In this document: positions 41,098 through 57,777 of the stretch, one piece after another
Numbering within the stretch: position 1 is the first letter of the stretch
How the letters are laid out: each line of letters opens with the position of its first letter
Assembly (NCBI GenBank): GCA_019057795.1
Contig: JAHLWS010000087.1
Location: 43,176-107,175, forward strand
Direction: 5' to 3'
Length of the DNA stretch: 64,000 nucleotides
From: Promethearchaeota archaeon
Lineage (GTDB): Archaea > Asgardarchaeota > Lokiarchaeia > Sigyniarchaeales > SOKP01
The notes under the pieces: generated by a model
The model's database searches: none
Seen by the model: the letters and a program-made list of their open reading frames with translations, nothing else
Told to the model about the DNA's origin: nothing
Made by a program: the position numbers and the translations under genes

Positions 41098-41658
41098 TCA
41101 TACTTTATCAGAGTTGTGATAAAAAATCATTTCTTCTACACACACATTTTTTTCAGGATCGTCGTGGAGAAAGTTAATCTCTATTTTTTTAACTTTATTT
41201 CCTAATAATTTTCGGAAGGCCGTTTCAAAATAACCTTTATTGACTCGGCAAAACGCTTTCCCGGGTTGTAGTTTTTCTCTGCGTTTACTAGGCTCTCTTA
41301 AAAAGCAGAAATTTTCTATAACTACTCTGGTTTGATCTGAATTTAATTGAACTTCTCTAATTTGTATTGAATAAAAATCTTTCAATTCGGTTAATAAGAT
41401 TTCTAAAGCTTCAAAAATTCCAAATTCCTCCTTGTTATGCTTTTCTTTTATCCGTTTAGCAATTATCTCTCCCGGTCCTGATCCTGTCTGATACAGCATT
41501 GAAAGCAAACTATTTTTACCGAAAATATCAAGGATTTTATAAACCATTGATTCACAGATTATTTCAAACCCTTTTAACGAATTAACATTAGAACTATCAT
41601 TTTGAATCTTCTTATTTATATCATTTAAAATATCTTCATTTATTTCATCTATTTCCAA
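41098..41658 (-). CDS. V4R domain protein (Bet3/TRAPP-related fold)
   Basis: LYQTGSGPGE, ENFCFLRE, FCRVNKGYFETAF, terminal C (three-Cys V4R pattern). Confidence 0.75.
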   Translation of the reverse strand: MEIDEINEDILNDINKKIQNDSSNVNSLKGFEIICESMVYKILDIFGKNSLLSMLYQTGSGPGEIIAKRIKEKHNKEEFGIFEALEILLTELKDFYSIQIREVQLNSDQTRVVIENFCFLREPSKRREKLQPGKAFCRVNKGYFETAFRKLLGNKVKKIEINFLHDDPEKNVCVEEMIFYHNSDKV

Positions 41659-41823
41659 AAAACAATCCCCTAAATCTACGATATTGATTTTATTCGGTTA
41701 TATTCTTAATTAATAATTTAAACATGAAACTATATAAATATTTAATTTCAATTATAAGATTAAGCGTGGTTTTATAAAGTTACATTTTTCGAATAAATGT
41801 CTTATTTAAAGAACAAAATATTA

Positions 41824-42372
41824 TTATGTCAAAAGATTGGGATTTTCAGCTATATTAATTAATGCATTTTCAAAATCCTTATAATCAGGTAATGATTCAA
41901 GACAAACTGAGATGTTTCTCAAATTGCTGTTTCTTTCTAAAATGAACTTCTTAATCGTTGGAATAATTATATCTGCACAAATCTTCGCGTTAAATCCGAT
42001 TACTTCTTTCGATATTGGAGGATAAGCGATTGAATATAAACCTTCTTTATCGGCTAATTTTAGCGAATTCCAGATCGCTAACATCATTTTTTTTTGATCG
42101 TGACCTGCTCTTACATGGAAAATAAATTTAGCATTTAAATTGCCGCCAGAGGTAATTACAGCATCCCCAATTGGAACATTTGATATCTTACTAATAATAC
42201 GATTACATTCTACTTGTATTTTATGACCCGCTCCTTTCAATACTCGACATCTTAAGGTACCACTAGGCAAAAGCCGACTATTTGTAGGAATGGCAATTGC
42301 ATCGTAGTCAGCATTAATTATATCGCCGATAAAAACTTCTATAACCGTGTTATTGATCGTTAATTGATTCAT
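41824..42372 (-). CDS. Macro domain protein (degenerate MacroD-like)
   Basis: GDII..DAIAIPTN..L, GDAVITSGGNLNAKFIFHV, SIAYPPIS. Confidence 0.88.
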   Translation of the reverse strand: MNQLTINNTVIEVFIGDIINADYDAIAIPTNSRLLPSGTLRCRVLKGAGHKIQVECNRIISKISNVPIGDAVITSGGNLNAKFIFHVRAGHDQKKMMLAIWNSLKLADKEGLYSIAYPPISKEVIGFNAKICADIIIPTIKKFILERNSNLRNISVCLESLPDYKDFENALINIAENPNLLT

Positions 42373-42510
42373 TAAAAGATTTATTAATATTTTTATACAA
42401 TTTTTCTAATAGTATAAGTTATTTTTAATATTATCTTTAATTTATATAGGCTTATTGCGAGAACCTTTACAAAAATGTAAGCATTTAAAAGCAGTTTAAA
42501 CAAGTTTAAC

Positions 42511-42996
42511 TTATTGATTTATGCGTTTAACTTTCTTAACGAGCGCCTCTACATTTTTTTCAACGATTTCTAATATTTCGTCGTATCGTTTTTTCTCAGT
42601 TTTATAAGGATCTGGAATGTTTAAATCCTTTTTATCTGCCCCATTAAATTCTTTCAAAGTATATAATTTCTGTTTTAATTGTTCTTGTAAAGTTCTAAAT
42701 CTTTTTTTAACTTTTGTTAAATGATATCGTTCCATACCTATTATAAGATCTTGTTTTTCTATCAATTCTCTTGTTATGACCTTAGGTTGAAAATCACTTA
42801 TTTCAATACCTTTTGATTGTATATAATCTATTGTCTCTGGTTGAGCGTAATCAAAAGCATCGTGCCATCCCGCAGAATCGAAGATAACTCCTTGTAACTC
42901 GTATTTTTTACCGTAAAAGTTCGCAAGATGTTGTGCTGCTGGCGAACGACATGTGTTTGCGTAACATATGAATAAAATTCGTTTTATTTTCGTCAT
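42511..42996 (-). CDS. Low-molecular-weight protein phosphatase (LMW-PTP family)
   Basis: P-loop CYANTCRS, DSAG, DLIIGMERYH, general-acid IPDPY. Confidence 0.92.
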   Translation of the reverse strand: MTKIKRILFICYANTCRSPAAQHLANFYGKKYELQGVIFDSAGWHDAFDYAQPETIDYIQSKGIEISDFQPKVITRELIEKQDLIIGMERYHLTKVKKRFRTLQEQLKQKLYTLKEFNGADKKDLNIPDPYKTEKKRYDEILEIVEKNVEALVKKVKRINQ

Positions 42997-43015
42997 TTTT
43001 GCTCTTACTAAGTAG

Positions 43016-43501
43016 TTAGAGTTCGGTTTTATTTATCCGAATTATTTTTTCAATCATTTTTTCGATATTTTCATCAATTATTTTAAGAACTTTCTGGTAA
43101 GTCTTAGTACTGGCGTAATACGGATCTATTATATCTAAATCATCAGTTTCTCCGTTAAATTCTTTTAAAGTAAACAATTTTTTACTGATGTCGTTAACTC
43201 CTTGATAATTTTCTCTAATATCGATAACATGTGACTTTTCCATCGTTATAATTAAGTCTTGTTTTTCTAGCAATTTTCGATTGATTATTTGGGGTTGAAA
43301 ATCAGAGTGTTTGATGCCCTTTGAATTTAAATATTCCTGAGATTCGGGTTGCATGTAAGAAAAAGCATTTATAAAACCAGCGCTCTCAAAAGTTAAATTA
43401 ACATCATATTTCTTGGCGTAATCTCGTGCTAAGTATTCAGCAGCAGGAGATCTTGCTGTATTTCCTAAACAAACTATTAAAATCTTTGAGATATTATTCA
43501 T
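43016..43501 (-). CDS. Low-molecular-weight protein phosphatase (LMW-PTP family)
   Basis: P-loop CLGNTARS, ESAG, DLIITMEKSH, IIDPYY. Confidence 0.92.
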   Translation of the reverse strand: MNNISKILIVCLGNTARSPAAEYLARDYAKKYDVNLTFESAGFINAFSYMQPESQEYLNSKGIKHSDFQPQIINRKLLEKQDLIITMEKSHVIDIRENYQGVNDISKKLFTLKEFNGETDDLDIIDPYYASTKTYQKVLKIIDENIEKMIEKIIRINKTEL

Positions 43502-43774
43502 TTTTTATTATATATGTAAATAAATTTATCCAAAAAAACTTTCCTTCATTAAAAAATATGTGAAGATTATTTTTTAATTAAACAAATCTAAATTATTGTT
43601 ATAAAACCTAGAAAAAATACAAATACATCTTTTTATTAATTAAAAAAAAATTATATTAATTGCTTATTGGTTTCATATTAAAAGCACCCATCTCTGTATG
43701 TGTCTAATCTATTAAAAAAGATTTTTAAAATATTGTAAATAAAGAATTTAAATACTATAATATCATAAATAAAG

Positions 43775-45427
43775 ATGATATTGATGAAAAAGGAATCCCT
43801 TAAAAATTGGTTTGTAAGAGTATTTGCTAGAGATATCGACTTGCCAAAGAACTCAATAGTTTATTTATTTTTCTCTCTTTTGGCAATTCTCTTAATTATT
43901 GAGGCTTTATTATTCAAATATGTCGGTTTAACGGAAAATGTTTCAGTTATAAATATTGAGATAGGTGTAATATTATTTACACTTGCTATTAGTTTCCTTA
44001 CCTCAGTTATACTTGTTGATAAAATAAAGAAAAGAACAAGATATTTTAATTTAACTTTGCTTATATGTATAATAGGAATATTTTTTAGTGCTTTTTCTGA
44101 AGTAATTTTATATTATATAGGTTTATTAATCGTATTAATAACAGTTCCTCAATTAATAGCATTATGGTTTACAACATTAGTTCATGAAACTAATATTTTA
44201 AATAGGGGAAGGATAACTGCTTTTCTTCTAGCTTCATGTTCCCTTTTAGGTTGGTTTGGTTTTATTTTTGTAACTTTTGAATTTTTGTACAACTATTTTT
44301 TTATTTTAATATCAATACTTTTAGTAATAATTTTTTGGTGTTCTAGAAAATATAAATATATAGAAACTGAAGAGAGGCTTAAATCTGATAAGAAATTTTG
44401 GAATATTATTTTTGAAAAGCAATTTTTTCGGTATTCATCTAGTTTCACAATATTAAGTTTTGTTTTAGGGGATCTTTTAGCTCGATATAGTTTCGATGTA
44501 GACTTTTTTGTTTTTTTTTTGGCATCTACAATATATCTCATCGTAGCGGGTTGTTTTTTAGATAATATAGGTAGAAAAACCTCAATAGTATTAGGGATTT
44601 TAGTTCTATCGTTTTTTCTTATATCTTATGGATCGTTTATAGAATTAGATTACATATTTGGACTGCCAAGAAAAGTTTTTCTTTCTATTCATTACGGGTT
44701 GTCGTTACTACCTCTTATACTTGCAATCCAAACTATATCTGGAGATTTTTCAACAGAAAGGGGAAATTTAAAATATAGAGGTCGTATTAATGGTCTTTTT
44801 TTGGCTTTAATGTTTATAGGAATTGCTTTTGGTTTTATTTTTAGTAGATGGATAAATGGTTTGTATGCACTTTATCCAGAATTAAATATTATCATTCCCA
44901 ATTTTCCAAATCTCTTAAATGGGTTTGTTTTAGTTATTCTTCTTGTTTGGATGATGGCAATGAAAGAATTTTTAATATCTAAAGAAAAAAATTGGCCATC
45001 AGCAATGATAAATCTTTATGTTTTTAGTGCTTATGGAGTTGGGCTTTACTATCATAATTTTGAGGAAAGCCCCAAAGAGGAAGAAAAAAAGGATAAGAGA
45101 GAGATGGATGAAGATCTTATTTCTGGAGCATTGACAGGTGTTGTAGCAATCATTTCTGAAATAACTCAAAGCAAAAAACAGTTAAGAAAAATTGACAAGG
45201 AGGGTTATCATCTTCTATTCTCTTTTGGAAAATACCACGTTGTCTGCTTAATTTCAACAATGGATTTACCAGTGTTATTAAAGAAACTTGATGAGTTTTC
45301 AAAAGATTTTGAAATAAAATTCGGGAAGGAGCTTAAAAATTTTGTAGGAAATGTTAGTCCTTTTGATTCTACAAAATATCTTATTGATAAATATTTCAAT
45401 CAGAAATATGGGTTTTTTTTTAATTAA
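43775..45427 (+). CDS. MFS-like polytopic membrane protein fused to a C-terminal longin-like domain
   Basis: About 12 TM segments with MFS-like loops (VDKIKKR, LDNIGRK, RGRITA, RGRING); C-terminal LYVFSAYGVGLYYHNF..DEDLISGALTGV..FEIKFGKELKNFVGNVSPF. Confidence 0.75.
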   Translation: MILMKKESLKNWFVRVFARDIDLPKNSIVYLFFSLLAILLIIEALLFKYVGLTENVSVINIEIGVILFTLAISFLTSVILVDKIKKRTRYFNLTLLICIIGIFFSAFSEVILYYIGLLIVLITVPQLIALWFTTLVHETNILNRGRITAFLLASCSLLGWFGFIFVTFEFLYNYFFILISILLVIIFWCSRKYKYIETEERLKSDKKFWNIIFEKQFFRYSSSFTILSFVLGDLLARYSFDVDFFVFFLASTIYLIVAGCFLDNIGRKTSIVLGILVLSFFLISYGSFIELDYIFGLPRKVFLSIHYGLSLLPLILAIQTISGDFSTERGNLKYRGRINGLFLALMFIGIAFGFIFSRWINGLYALYPELNIIIPNFPNLLNGFVLVILLVWMMAMKEFLISKEKNWPSAMINLYVFSAYGVGLYYHNFEESPKEEEKKDKREMDEDLISGALTGVVAIISEITQSKKQLRKIDKEGYHLLFSFGKYHVVCLISTMDLPVLLKKLDEFSKDFEIKFGKELKNFVGNVSPFDSTKYLIDKYFNQKYGFFFN

Positions 45428-45445
45428 TTTATAATTAAAATCTTA

Positions 45446-45949
45446 TTAATTTTCTTCAGAATTATTAATTTTGATAATCTTTTCAATTGATTTAATTATT
45501 CCATCTTCAATTCGTTTAAGAACTTTATTATATTCATTTTCCTCTAAATAGAAAGGATCTTCTATTTCAAAATTTTCAGTTTCACCAGCAAATTCTAATA
45601 GTAAAAAGACCTTTTCATCCAGATCCTTTAAATGCTTGAATCTTCTCTTTAATTTTCGAACATGGTATTTCTCTTCGAAACATAGAATAAGGTCTTGTTT
45701 GGTTATTAGTTCTTCATCGACATCCTTGGCTTGAAAATCGTCCATTTCAACACCTTTAGATTTAAGATATTTTAACGTTCCTTCTTGAGGTTGTTCATAA
45801 TAGTGGTAAAGTCCTGCCGAATCAAACGCTATATCTTTTAATTCATCTTTATATATTGTTTGTTGTATCCATTTCGCAAAATATTCAGCAAACGGGCTTC
45901 GACATGTATTACCACTACATAAAAAAAGTATATTTTTAATTTTATGCAT
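45446..45949 (-). CDS. Low-molecular-weight protein phosphatase (LMW-PTP family)
   Basis: P-loop CSGNTCRS, DSAG, IEDPFY. Confidence 0.92.
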   Translation of the reverse strand: MHKIKNILFLCSGNTCRSPFAEYFAKWIQQTIYKDELKDIAFDSAGLYHYYEQPQEGTLKYLKSKGVEMDDFQAKDVDEELITKQDLILCFEEKYHVRKLKRRFKHLKDLDEKVFLLLEFAGETENFEIEDPFYLEENEYNKVLKRIEDGIIKSIEKIIKINNSEEN

Positions 45950-46072: not shown

Positions 46073-47650
46073 ATTTCATTAAAATTAAAAACGAGTTTCT
46101 TGATAATAGGAGGAGGCATTTCTGGTCTATCTTTAGCCATTAACTTAGCAAAGATGGTTCCTGAGGAGGATATATTATTAATTACCAAAGAAAAATTATC
46201 AGAATGCAACACTTTTTATGCCCAAGGTGGAATCGCATGTGTACGGGACAAGAATGATAGTTTTGAGAAACACATTCAAGATACATTAATCGCTGGGGAT
46301 GGACTTTGTGATGAAGAAGTTGTAAGGTTAATTGTATCAAAGGCGCCTGAAAGAATTGGTCAACTAATTGAGATGGGAGTTGAATTCTCAAGGAATAATG
46401 AGGGGGAATTTGATCTTGGAAAAGAAGGGGGCCATTCTGAAAGAAGAGTTCTTCATGTAAATGATTTAACAGGGCAGAATATAGAGCTTAAGCTTATCGA
46501 AAAAGTAAAAAAAATTCCAAATCTTCAAATTAAAGAAAATTGGTGTGCAATCAATTTATTCTGTAATAATTTTAGATGTGATGGCGCTTATGTATTAGAC
46601 CAAAAGAGCGAAGAAATTTACAATATTTCTGCTAAATCTACAATTTTAGCGACTGGTGGTGCCGGTAAGATTTATCTTTATACCACAAATCCAGATGTTG
46701 CCTCTGGAGATGGAATTGCAATGGCATATCGTGCTGGAACGATAATTGCTAATATGGAATTTTATCAATTTCATCCTACTTGTCTTTATCACCCATTTGC
46801 TAAATCATTCTTGATAACGGAAGCCATGAGAGGGGAAGGCGCTGTTTTAAAAGATATTAAAGGCAATGAATTTATGGAAAAATATCATCCTTTAAAGGAA
46901 TTAGCACCACGAGATATTGTATCACGAGCAATTGATAGAGAACTTAAACGAACTGGAGATGACCATGTAGTATTAGATTTTGCATCATATAGAAGTCCTG
47001 ACTATATTAAAAGTCATTTTCCAGGCGTTTACGAGCAATGTAAATTATTTAATATCGATATTACTAAAGAACCAATACCCGTTGTCCCAGCAGCTCATTA
47101 TAGTTGTGGAGGTGTACTTGTCAAAGTAAATGGTTCTACAAAAGTAAAAAATCTCTACACGATCGGAGAATCATCCTGTACGGGATTACATGGTGCTAAT
47201 CGATTAGCAAGTAATTCTTTATTAGAAGGATTAGTGTGCGCATATGAATGTGCTAAAACACTTGCGAAAAAGACTAAAGATCTGAAAATTAACGAATTTA
47301 AAAAATGGGAACCCGGTCATGCCGTACCCTCTACAGAAGCGGTTATAATAACACAGAATTGGGACGAAATAAGAAGATTCATGTGGAATTACGTTGGAAT
47401 TGTCCGAACGGATAAGCGTCTTCAAAGAGCTAAAAAAAGAATTAATATGCTTCTGGACGAAATCAATCAATATTATTGGGATTTTAAAATAGAAAAAAAT
47501 CTTGTTGAACTTAGAAATTTGGCTACTGTCGCAAAAATAATAATAGTAAGTGCAATTTCTCGCAAAGAGAGTAGGGGAATCCATTACAATTTAGATCATC
47601 CAAATAAATCTGAAATGAGTAGAAATACTACAATAAGAAGACCTTGGTAA
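46073..47650 (+). CDS. nadB: L-aspartate oxidase (start possibly ATT at 46073)
   Basis: IIGGGISG, YAQGGIA, EGGHSERR, QFHPT, ELAPRD, GLHGANRLASNSLLE, RKESRG. Confidence 0.95.
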   Translation: MSLKLKTSFLIIGGGISGLSLAINLAKMVPEEDILLITKEKLSECNTFYAQGGIACVRDKNDSFEKHIQDTLIAGDGLCDEEVVRLIVSKAPERIGQLIEMGVEFSRNNEGEFDLGKEGGHSERRVLHVNDLTGQNIELKLIEKVKKIPNLQIKENWCAINLFCNNFRCDGAYVLDQKSEEIYNISAKSTILATGGAGKIYLYTTNPDVASGDGIAMAYRAGTIIANMEFYQFHPTCLYHPFAKSFLITEAMRGEGAVLKDIKGNEFMEKYHPLKELAPRDIVSRAIDRELKRTGDDHVVLDFASYRSPDYIKSHFPGVYEQCKLFNIDITKEPIPVVPAAHYSCGGVLVKVNGSTKVKNLYTIGESSCTGLHGANRLASNSLLEGLVCAYECAKTLAKKTKDLKINEFKKWEPGHAVPSTEAVIITQNWDEIRRFMWNYVGIVRTDKRLQRAKKRINMLLDEINQYYWDFKIEKNLVELRNLATVAKIIIVSAISRKESRGIHYNLDHPNKSEMSRNTTIRRPW

Positions 47651-56892: not shown

Positions 56893-57777
56893 TTACTTAA
56901 GAGTTTTATTTATGGCTTCTCTTAAAATCGCGTGAATTTTCTCTCTATAATTAGGATTAATTGCAATCATTCCGTGGACTTTAATAGGTGGGTTTCTTTC
57001 CGCTTCGGACAGTATCCTTTCACAAAATTTAGGGGTTAACCTATTTGGCAAATCTTGTTTATTCGCGATTCCAACGACTAAAACATCCTTATAATAAACA
57101 TCTAAAATATCCCGAATAATATTTTTACTATAGTTTACATTCTCAAAACTAGAATCAAGCACTAGGAGAGCTATGTCAGTACTATCCAATAAACTTTTCC
57201 ATAAAGACCGATAATTACTTTGACCAGCAAAGTCCCACAGGACAATGGAACGGTGAATATCAAGTTCTTCACCGTTATATGAGGTGATAGCCACATTTAT
57301 GGTCGGGATGTATTCTAAATCTATATCCTTACCACAAATGAGATGTAATAGAGTGGTCTTACCCACACCTCCAGTTCCAATAATAGATACTTTTATAGAG
57401 CCAAGAATCGTATCGTCAATCTCTCTTTCAAAATCTGTAAAAATAGCGCGATTTCCGGTCCAATCACCACTCGCTAAAAGTTCTCCATACTTTTCAATGA
57501 ACTTTGCTCTTATCGTCGTAATTTTCGAGTTAACTACAGCGTCATCATCCACAAGATCCGTGCATACTACAATTATAATCTCATCGATAATCGTATAGTA
57601 GTACTTAAACTCGTCTGTAGCCGTGGATTTTATGTCGCTTTGGCTTATTTCTTTCATAAACCCCGAAAAAGCGCTTAAGAATCCCGCTAATAAGTCTCTA
57701 TCCACATCAGAACTACCATAATTCCTGAATAGCAGAGATTTTCCAGTTCGGGTCAATATATTAATGTATTGAATCAT
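56893..57777 (-). CDS. Longin-like domain fused to Ras-superfamily (Arf/Rab-like) small GTPase
   Basis: N-terminal longin-like domain (INILTRTGKSLLFRNY..DLLAGFLSAF); G1 GTGGVGKT, G2 YIPT, G3 WDFAGQ, G4 NKQD. Confidence 0.9.
   Translation of the reverse strand: MIQYINILTRTGKSLLFRNYGSSDVDRDLLAGFLSAFSGFMKEISQSDIKSTATDEFKYYYTIIDEIIIVVCTDLVDDDAVVNSKITTIRAKFIEKYGELLASGDWTGNRAIFTDFEREIDDTILGSIKVSIIGTGGVGKTTLLHLICGKDIDLEYIPTINVAITSYNGEELDIHRSIVLWDFAGQSNYRSLWKSLLDSTDIALLVLDSSFENVNYSKNIIRDILDVYYKDVLVVGIANKQDLPNRLTPKFCERILSEAERNPPIKVHGMIAINPNYREKIHAILREAINKTLK

Follow-up and report, generated by a model that had tools for sequence, protein, structure and literature searches.

A Lokiarchaeial expansion of threonine-type low-molecular-weight phosphatases without a known arginine kinase

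A stretch of 64,000 nucleotides from a Promethearchaeota archaeon (GenBank assembly GCA_019057795.1, contig JAHLWS010000087.1, positions 43,176 to 107,175 of the forward strand; hereafter the window) encodes three phosphatases from the family of low-molecular-weight protein tyrosine phosphatases (LMW-PTPs), designated PTPa, PTPb and PTPc. All three carry Thr as the fifth residue of the catalytic P-loop. They belong to a lineage-specific, Thr-type expansion within a single Lokiarchaeial family, referred to as family f1, for which no arginine kinase is known. From their sequences, PTPa, PTPb and PTPc may prefer N-phosphorylated substrates (phosphoramidates of the phospho-arginine, or pArg, type) over phosphotyrosine (pTyr). 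This reading is tentative, with a probability of roughly 0.35. The host genome is a 4.95-Mb Lokiarchaeial metagenome-assembled genome (MAG) with 100% completeness and 7.5% contamination.

The genes for PTPa (161 aa, 42511..42996), PTPb (161 aa, 43016..43501) and PTPc (167 aa, 45446..45949) lie on the minus strand of the window, and their products matched PF01451 with E-values of 3.7e-25, 1.6e-25 and 1.8e-24, respectively. These matches scored 87-90.5 bits against a cut-off of 23.2 and extended from profile position 1 to positions 139-143 of 144. The P-loops reported in an initial annotation of this DNA, CYANTCRS in PTPa (nt 42943-42966), CLGNTARS in PTPb (nt 43448-43471) and CSGNTCRS in PTPc (nt 45896-45919), were recovered at residues 11-18, each with Thr at position 5 as reported. 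The general-acid D-P loops are intact (IPDPY, IIDPYY and IEDPFY, respectively), and their Asp aligns with the corresponding residue of solved LMW-PTPs, such as the DPYY Asp of the Entamoeba LMW-PTP. A second P-loop cysteine, Cys16, is present in PTPa and PTPc; PTPb has Ala at residue 16. Relatives of PTPa in the PDB include 4egs, the Entamoeba LMW-PTP and YwlE, and PTPb matched both YwlE (4kk3, E 2.5e-12) and the Cj protein 2gi4 (E 1.7e-13). A homologue search with PTPc returned 315 proteins, and all of the named ones were from Asgard. By these sequence features, PTPa, PTPb and PTPc are genuine LMW-PTP-fold phosphatases and appear to be active.

We infer from the motifs that the three proteins would act as cytoplasmic cysteine-dependent phosphatases. 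Cys11 would attack the phosphorus, with the phosphate held by Arg17 and the P-loop amides, and the Asp of the D-P loop would protonate the leaving group. The phospho-cysteine intermediate would then be hydrolysed. Cys16, where present (PTPa and PTPc), could engage in a protective disulfide.

Within this superfamily, Thr at P-loop position 5 is found with pArg as the substrate, Ile with pTyr, and Ser in the arsenate reductase ArsC (PMC7772506, PMC8001253). The Thr of YwlE, Thr11, touches the guanidinium group, and the T11I substitution in YwlE and in Drosophila DARP decreases pArg activity and increases pTyr activity; the same Thr-to-Ile change in S. aureus PtpB increases hydrolysis of para-nitrophenyl phosphate (pNPP) (PMC7772506, PMC8001253). 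The initial annotation had invoked this Thr/Ile/Ser rule, which agrees with the literature, with the bacterial co-occurrence survey presented below and with the Ser residues of ArsC-type Asgard members.

The hydroxyl-bearing residue is strongly conserved in family f1. Position 5 was readable in 84 orthologue P-loops from ~45 loci of this family, with 79 Thr, 4 Ser and 1 Ile, such that a hydroxyl is retained in 83/84. Trees of 249 and 140 LMW-PTP sequences, built from cluster representatives together with genome loci and weakly supported at their deep nodes, placed PTPa, PTPb and PTPc in a single clade confined to family f1, with a support of 74 by the Shimodaira-Hasegawa-like approximate likelihood ratio test (SH-aLRT). 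The paralogue subclades were supported at 96-100 (99 for the PTPa clade and 97 for the PTPc clade). The trees thus indicate that all three derive from one Thr-bearing gene that was triplicated within a single Lokiarchaeial family. A fourth Thr5 paralogue, with the P-loop CSVNTARS and the acid loop DPSM, is encoded elsewhere in the host genome, on contig C77.

Ile5 members are also found in a wider Asgard clade (SH-aLRT 90-94), with CLGNICRS in one other Lokiarchaeial family, f2, and CSGNICRS in a second, f4. Of 31 P-loops read from the 30 best-scoring loci of another Asgard class, 20 have Ser, 7 are CSGNIIRS and 3 have Thr; nearly all of the 20 Ser P-loops belong to ArsC-type proteins with a resolving Cys pair. 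Since the wider Asgard clade includes Ile5 members and the other class carries mostly Ser or Ile, the sequences indicate that the Thr/Ile difference arose inside Asgard. They also indicate that the hydroxyl at position 5 is kept under selection in family f1, while sister Asgard lineages have Ile. Two of the three Thr P-loops from the other class resemble the f1 pair and occur on a single short contig. This contig (locus L126, G304:C291:429-3854) carries a tandem of CLGNTARS/DPYY and CFGNTSRS/DPVN proteins that are nested in the f1 PTPb and PTPc clades, a placement that points either to mis-binning of the contig or to recent transfer.

Bacterial relatives with Thr at position 5 are closely associated with an arginine kinase. 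A search profile was constructed from four Thr5 paralogues, and the 150 nearest 50%-identity cluster representatives from 1.8 billion proteins, mostly of the CTGNTCRS type, included 117 with Thr5, 17 with Ile and 6 with Ser, although this ranking is slightly biased because the profile itself carried Thr5. A PF00217 kinase (McsB-type) was detected in 43/45 bacterial genomes containing the closest Thr5 relatives, compared with 1/14 control genomes. The genomes with the kinase include members of Clostridia, Syntrophomonadaceae, Planctomycetota, Gemmatimonadota, Verrucomicrobiota, Lentisphaerae, WOR-3 and Glassbacteria, and an McsB-type kinase was also found together with a YwlE-type phosphatase in Phycisphaerae. 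This pairing extends YwlE-McsB co-occurrence well beyond the Gram-positives, in which the system is described. Fusions of YwlE-type domains to RpiB, TsaC/Sua5 or serine hydroxymethyltransferase (SHMT) are frequent in bacteria.

The search for cluster representatives also returned two giant proteins, P0241 (1679 aa) and P0369 (2197 aa). Each combines a PPDK_N ATP-binding domain and a phosphoenolpyruvate (PEP)-utilizer swivel domain with two to five LMWPc domains. Their P-loops include CAGNACRS, CSFNTSRS and CTHNTSRS, and one stretch touches PTS_IIB. The architecture suggests phosphotransfer onto LMW-PTP-fold cysteines.

To our knowledge, phosphorylation of arginine in proteins has been established solely for bacteria with McsB. 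The initial annotation had counted the lack of a candidate arginine kinase against its own proposal, and no McsB-like ATP:guanido kinase (PF00217) was found by profile search of the complete host genome. Together with the bias in the ranking noted above, this result weighs against a pArg-type preference, as do several others. Across 301 Asgard genomes, PF00217 exceeded its cut-off in only one, and that sole match (locus L105, G038:C50) is on a 2036-bp contig carrying a Zn-finger/UVR McsA gene followed by McsB, which is a fragment of a bacterial ctsR operon mis-binned into a Lokiarchaeial MAG. Clp_N, the ClpC N-domain that reads pArg, is absent from the host genome. By PDB similarity, PTPc matched the Entamoeba and human pTyr enzymes better than YwlE, and the overall PDB picture is mixed. 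The Asgard acid loops (DPYY, DPFY and DPYK) resemble those of classical pTyr enzymes, unlike the DPFGG of the YwlE type; none of the Asgard paralogues has the YwlE-like pattern D-P-[FY]-G-[GQ], and DP[FY]G is usual in bacterial Thr5 relatives. Finally, the three Thr residues are not independent events because PTPa, PTPb and PTPc are paralogues of one triplication, and they count as a single event in one ancestral gene. Among other kinases, no bacterial tyrosine kinase (BY-kinase) scored over the cut-off in the host genome, and Hanks-type kinases gave two weak matches only. No kinase gene lies on either side of the cluster within the window, where the neighbours are housekeeping genes and one small GTPase gene.

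The proposal in the initial annotation that these are archaeal phospho-arginine phosphatases is therefore upheld in part. It is favored by the Thr5 rule, the conservation of the hydroxyl and the bacterial pairing with McsB; the corresponding kinase, the ClpC N-domain and a BY-kinase are all missing from the host genome. As the hydroxyl is retained and Thr favors pArg in YwlE, PtpB and DARP, a preference for N-phospho substrates would be the most likely explanation. Proteins phosphorylated by some kinase that is not related to McsB would be the targets, or else pArg arising by another route. The fuller proposition, that family f1 uses protein arginine or N-phosphorylation by an McsB-unrelated kinase with the three to four Thr-type LMW phosphatases as its erasers, is doubtful.

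PTPa, PTPb and PTPc could instead be ordinary protein tyrosine (or broad aryl-phosphate) phosphatases in which Thr5 is a tolerated lineage variant, an explanation we consider possible although not probable. Their DPYY/DPFY acid loops are like those of classical LMW-PTPs, as is the loop rich in aromatic residues that follows SAG, and both the closeness of PTPc to the Entamoeba and mammalian pTyr enzymes and the failure to find an arginine kinase or a ClpC reader are in line with it. Archaea show pTyr without a known tyrosine kinase (PMC5007285), and S. aureus PtpB was itself originally reported as a phosphatase that acts on pTyr and pNPP in vitro (PMC8001253). A neutral site, however, should drift among Thr, Ile, Val and Leu, and the observed pattern is instead a hydroxyl in all but one of the f1 P-loops while sister lineages keep Ile. 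The Thr-to-Ile change also raises pTyr or pNPP activity in all three enzymes in which it was tested, so that an enzyme dedicated to pTyr would be poorly served by Thr. In addition, the host genome already encodes one conventional PTP elsewhere, which could cover pTyr. Arsenate reduction by the thioredoxin-coupled LMW-PTP type, also considered for these proteins, is very improbable and was rejected. NCBIfam arsC_pI258_fam profiles did give weak matches to the N-terminal half only (E 1e-6 to 1e-8), but the scores of 27-33 bits are far under the cut-offs of 174 and 215. ArsC of the pI258 or B. subtilis type belongs to the same superfamily and likewise has a hydroxyl residue at position 5; that residue is Ser, and ArsC has two resolving cysteines ~70-80 residues downstream (Cys82/Cys89-type), whereas PTPa, PTPb and PTPc have Thr and lack the pair. 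ArsC-type Asgard members fall in separate clades, and a true ArsC with Ser5 and the Cys pair (CTGNSARS and CQKAEEMCP) is encoded elsewhere in the host genome, on contig C78.

The gene neighborhood raises a further rival, a role in metabolism or signaling linked to nicotinamide adenine dinucleotide (NAD) or ADP-ribose, because genes for an L-aspartate oxidase-type NadB and a nicotinamidase (PncA) are the steadiest neighbors of the phosphatases and are accompanied by a macro domain gene and, once, by a Sir2 gene. The phosphatases might then remove a phosphate from some metabolite of the ribose or nucleotide type, or control NAD enzymes, instead of serving a pArg pathway for proteins in general. 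Forty-seven loci of the same class were compared, in a sample enriched for a neighboring membrane protein gene (MFS-longin, described below), and presence was counted over the 35 f1 loci carrying a PTP gene. The NadB-like flavoprotein gene of the window (46100..47650, plus strand; FAD_binding_2 E 8.6e-90, Succ_DH_flav_C 3.9e-14) is the most constant neighbor, being found within 4 kb in 32/35 loci. It also stays beside the phosphatase in genus g4 (L107, L108), where the other block genes (V4R, MFS-longin and fatty-acid genes) have moved off. At L004:756-1950 on contig C77, the start of the Thr5 paralogue is 10 bp from the PncA-type gene upstream of it (isochorismatase family, E 1.8e-23), and an ATP-grasp gene follows on the opposite strand; this PncA-phosphatase pair is adjacent in ~30/41 genomes of the family, in at least 8 genera. 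The macro gene is a frequent neighbor (17/35, within 3 kb of the PTP genes), and the fusions of bacterial YwlE-type domains to RpiB, TsaC/Sua5 or SHMT likewise point to nucleotide or ribose contexts. A Sir2-family gene lies between PTPc and PTPb in one genome (L117:8932-9687, G115), but it is a single case among ~47 loci and was rejected as a recurrent insert; five sirtuin genes occur elsewhere in the host genome (contigs C8, C41, C80, C35 and C74). All of this is neighborhood evidence from one family with generally conserved synteny, in which genes for crotonase, 3-hydroxyacyl-CoA dehydrogenase (HADH) and a GNAT protein are conserved too. Moreover, NadB is divergent from PTPc and not co-transcribed with it, and the macro domain lacks catalytic residues. 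We know of no LMW-PTP that acts on NAD metabolites, and a NAD-linked role is regarded as unlikely.

The proposed preference for N-phospho substrates would place PTPa, PTPb and PTPc beside the protein arginine phosphatases of the LMW-PTP fold, namely YwlE (B. subtilis and G. stearothermophilus), S. aureus PtpB and Drosophila DARP. They share with these enzymes the fold, a C-X4-T-X-R-S P-loop with Thr5 and a D-P acid loop, and the nearest sequence neighbors of the Asgard paralogues are mostly of the CTGNTCRS type. They differ from the YwlE system in that McsB is missing from the host genome and no genuine copy occurs in the 301 Asgard genomes, and in that the host genome has no Clp_N. They also depart from the YwlE type in the acid loop (DPYY/DPFY, not DPFGG), in occurring as three to four paralogues per genome and in their membership of an Asgard-specific clade in which Ile5 proteins also occur. 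As with DARP, no kinase is known for the Asgard enzymes. The classical enzymes human ACP1, Entamoeba LMW-PTP, E. coli Wzb and B. subtilis YfkJ resemble them in fold, in the catalytic Cys, Arg and Asp and in a DPYY-type loop, and PDB E-values for classical LMW-PTPs are similar (1e-11 to 1e-13). The Asgard enzymes are set apart from this group by Thr rather than Ile at position 5 and by the lack of a BY-kinase partner over the cut-off.

If family f1 does use such a modification, this would be the first phosphoramidate protein-signaling system in archaea, a parallel to the orphan arginine phosphatase DARP of animals. The modification would then occur in an Asgard lineage, Asgard being the archaeal group closest to eukaryotes. 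Several paralogues of this lineage retain the pArg-determining residue under selection, while all known writers and readers are lacking. Either an arginine or N-kinase of a new kind exists, or the Thr rule does not transfer, and in the latter case the result is a warning against annotating "arginine phosphatase" from one residue. The question bears on whether N-phosphorylation exists in archaea.

The positions of the six genes named in the initial annotation, which comprise the three phosphatase genes and the genes for the MFS-longin, macro domain and V4R proteins, were all confirmed. Seven co-directional genes occupy the minus strand at 37.8-43.5 kb, in the order GNAT, crotonase, HADH, a 186-aa protein, macro, PTPa and PTPb, with 19 bp between PTPa and PTPb. 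The MFS-longin gene (43775..45427, plus strand) is divergent from PTPb across an intergenic region of 273 bp and convergent with PTPc across an 18-bp gap, and PTPc is divergent from the NadB-like gene across 150 bp. A metatranscriptome contig of 1025 nt (96% identity, depth 67) covers 43312-44334; it runs from the 5' end of PTPb across the 273-bp divergent region into the MFS-longin gene, of which it includes the first 560 nt. It is unusual for an RNA to cross divergent promoters, and carried-over DNA is a possible source; the contig shows neither strand nor level.

The same arrangement is observed across family f1 in the order GNAT, crotonase, HADH, V4R, macro, PTPa, PTPb, MFS-longin, PTPc and NadB. 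PTPb is the most constant paralogue (35/35 loci), followed by PTPc (29/35) and PTPa, which was present in 11/35 loci and mainly in the genus of the host. The V4R gene was found within 6 kb in 23/35 loci. MFS-longin was present in 12/35 and behaves as an optional insert (0, 1 or 2 copies) that is invariably located between PTPb and PTPc; in loci lacking it, the phosphatase genes are directly tandem. As the block includes housekeeping genes, it is backbone synteny. The synteny in other Lokiarchaeia raised by the initial annotation was thus confirmed within family f1 and is confined to it, as LMW-PTP genes outside the family have none of these neighbors (loci L109, L111). The suggestion that the cluster forms a post-translational-modification signaling island did not hold as a functional unit, since the block contains metabolic genes and its signaling-like members are each variably present. 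A dedicated island was rejected on the grounds that the macro, V4R and MFS-longin genes and the third phosphatase are each dispensable.

The macro domain protein (182 aa, 41824..42372, minus strand) was identified by PF01661 with E 2e-16, as the initial annotation had proposed. Its ligand loops are divergent in an alignment to the YmdB and PARP14 macro domains, with PSGTLRCRV in place of GGGGVDGAI and KEVIGF in place of TGVYGY. MacroD-type hydrolases have a Gly-rich loop containing the catalytic Asp (GGGV-D-G) and a T-G-[VI]-[YF]-G loop; both are missing here, and every NCBIfam equivalog score was far under its cut-off. Judging by these residues, the protein probably acts as a binder and not as a hydrolase.

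The 186-aa protein (41098..41658, minus strand), annotated initially as a V4R protein, was confirmed at the level of the V4R/Bet3 fold. It had no Pfam match of its own, and a PDB profile search returned only noise. V4R was touched by 5/19 orthologues at sub-threshold E-values of 0.027 or worse. An AlphaFold2 (AF2) model with a predicted local distance difference test (pLDDT) score of 81 was matched by Foldseek to the V4R phenol-sensor domains of PoxR, MopR and DmpR and to Bet3/TRAPPC3 (E 7e-4, probability 1.0). Three cysteines, C118, C137 and C173, are invariant in the 19 orthologues.

The MFS-longin protein (550 aa) combines a body like that of the major facilitator superfamily (MFS) with a C-terminal longin domain. 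It matched MFS_1 with E 7e-6 and 25.6 bits, under the gathering score of 33.4, and some homologues carry a PF07690 match. Its hydropathy profile shows ~11-12 hydrophobic segments with a central loop at residues 189-243, and a motif-A-like DNIGRK occurs at residue 263. The longin domain claimed for this membrane protein was supported by the topology of its AF2 model and by Foldseek. It spans approximately residues 410-545, is predicted to be cytoplasmic and has the model topology beta-beta-alpha-beta-beta-beta-alpha-alpha; the mean pLDDT of the model is 68, with a core of 80-89. Foldseek matched the C-terminal 150 residues to Mon1/Ccz1, AP sigma/mu, Bet5/Trs23, sedlin and the SYBL1 longin, with E-values down to 1.4e-5. 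Orthologues with >50% identity occur in ~40/121 genomes of the class. Residues ~330-545 also match the ends of many Lokiarchaeial open reading frames (~770-800 and ~1134 aa) at 28-39% identity, for example G093:C1:1070623-1071150 and G010:C3:1307386-1307817. These matches suggest that the longin-containing C-terminal part is a cytoplasmic module attached promiscuously to a variety of membrane proteins.

The predicted folds of the 186-aa and MFS-longin proteins match those of V4R sensors, Bet3 and the longins of Mon1/Ccz1, AP sigma and Bet5/Trs23 with probability 1.0 and template modeling (TM) scores of 0.5-0.6, but sequence identity to these relatives is only 9-19%, and the longin domain is here fused to an MFS-like body. 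A Bet3/V4R fold and a membrane-anchored longin, the fold types that build the core of eukaryotic TRAPP, are thus encoded in the same neighborhood. In genus g4 (L011:5228-10667; L012:8827-14445) the V4R and longin genes are ~3.3 kb apart and the phosphatases have moved elsewhere. A proto-TRAPP module composed of the two proteins was set aside, as three unrelated genes lie between them in that genus. No partner GTPase gene was found inside the cluster. Further along the window, at 56893-57777 on the minus strand, a gene encodes a 294-aa protein whose N-terminal ~125 residues carry no assignment and whose residues 127-260 form a small GTPase domain of the Ras/Arf/Roc type.

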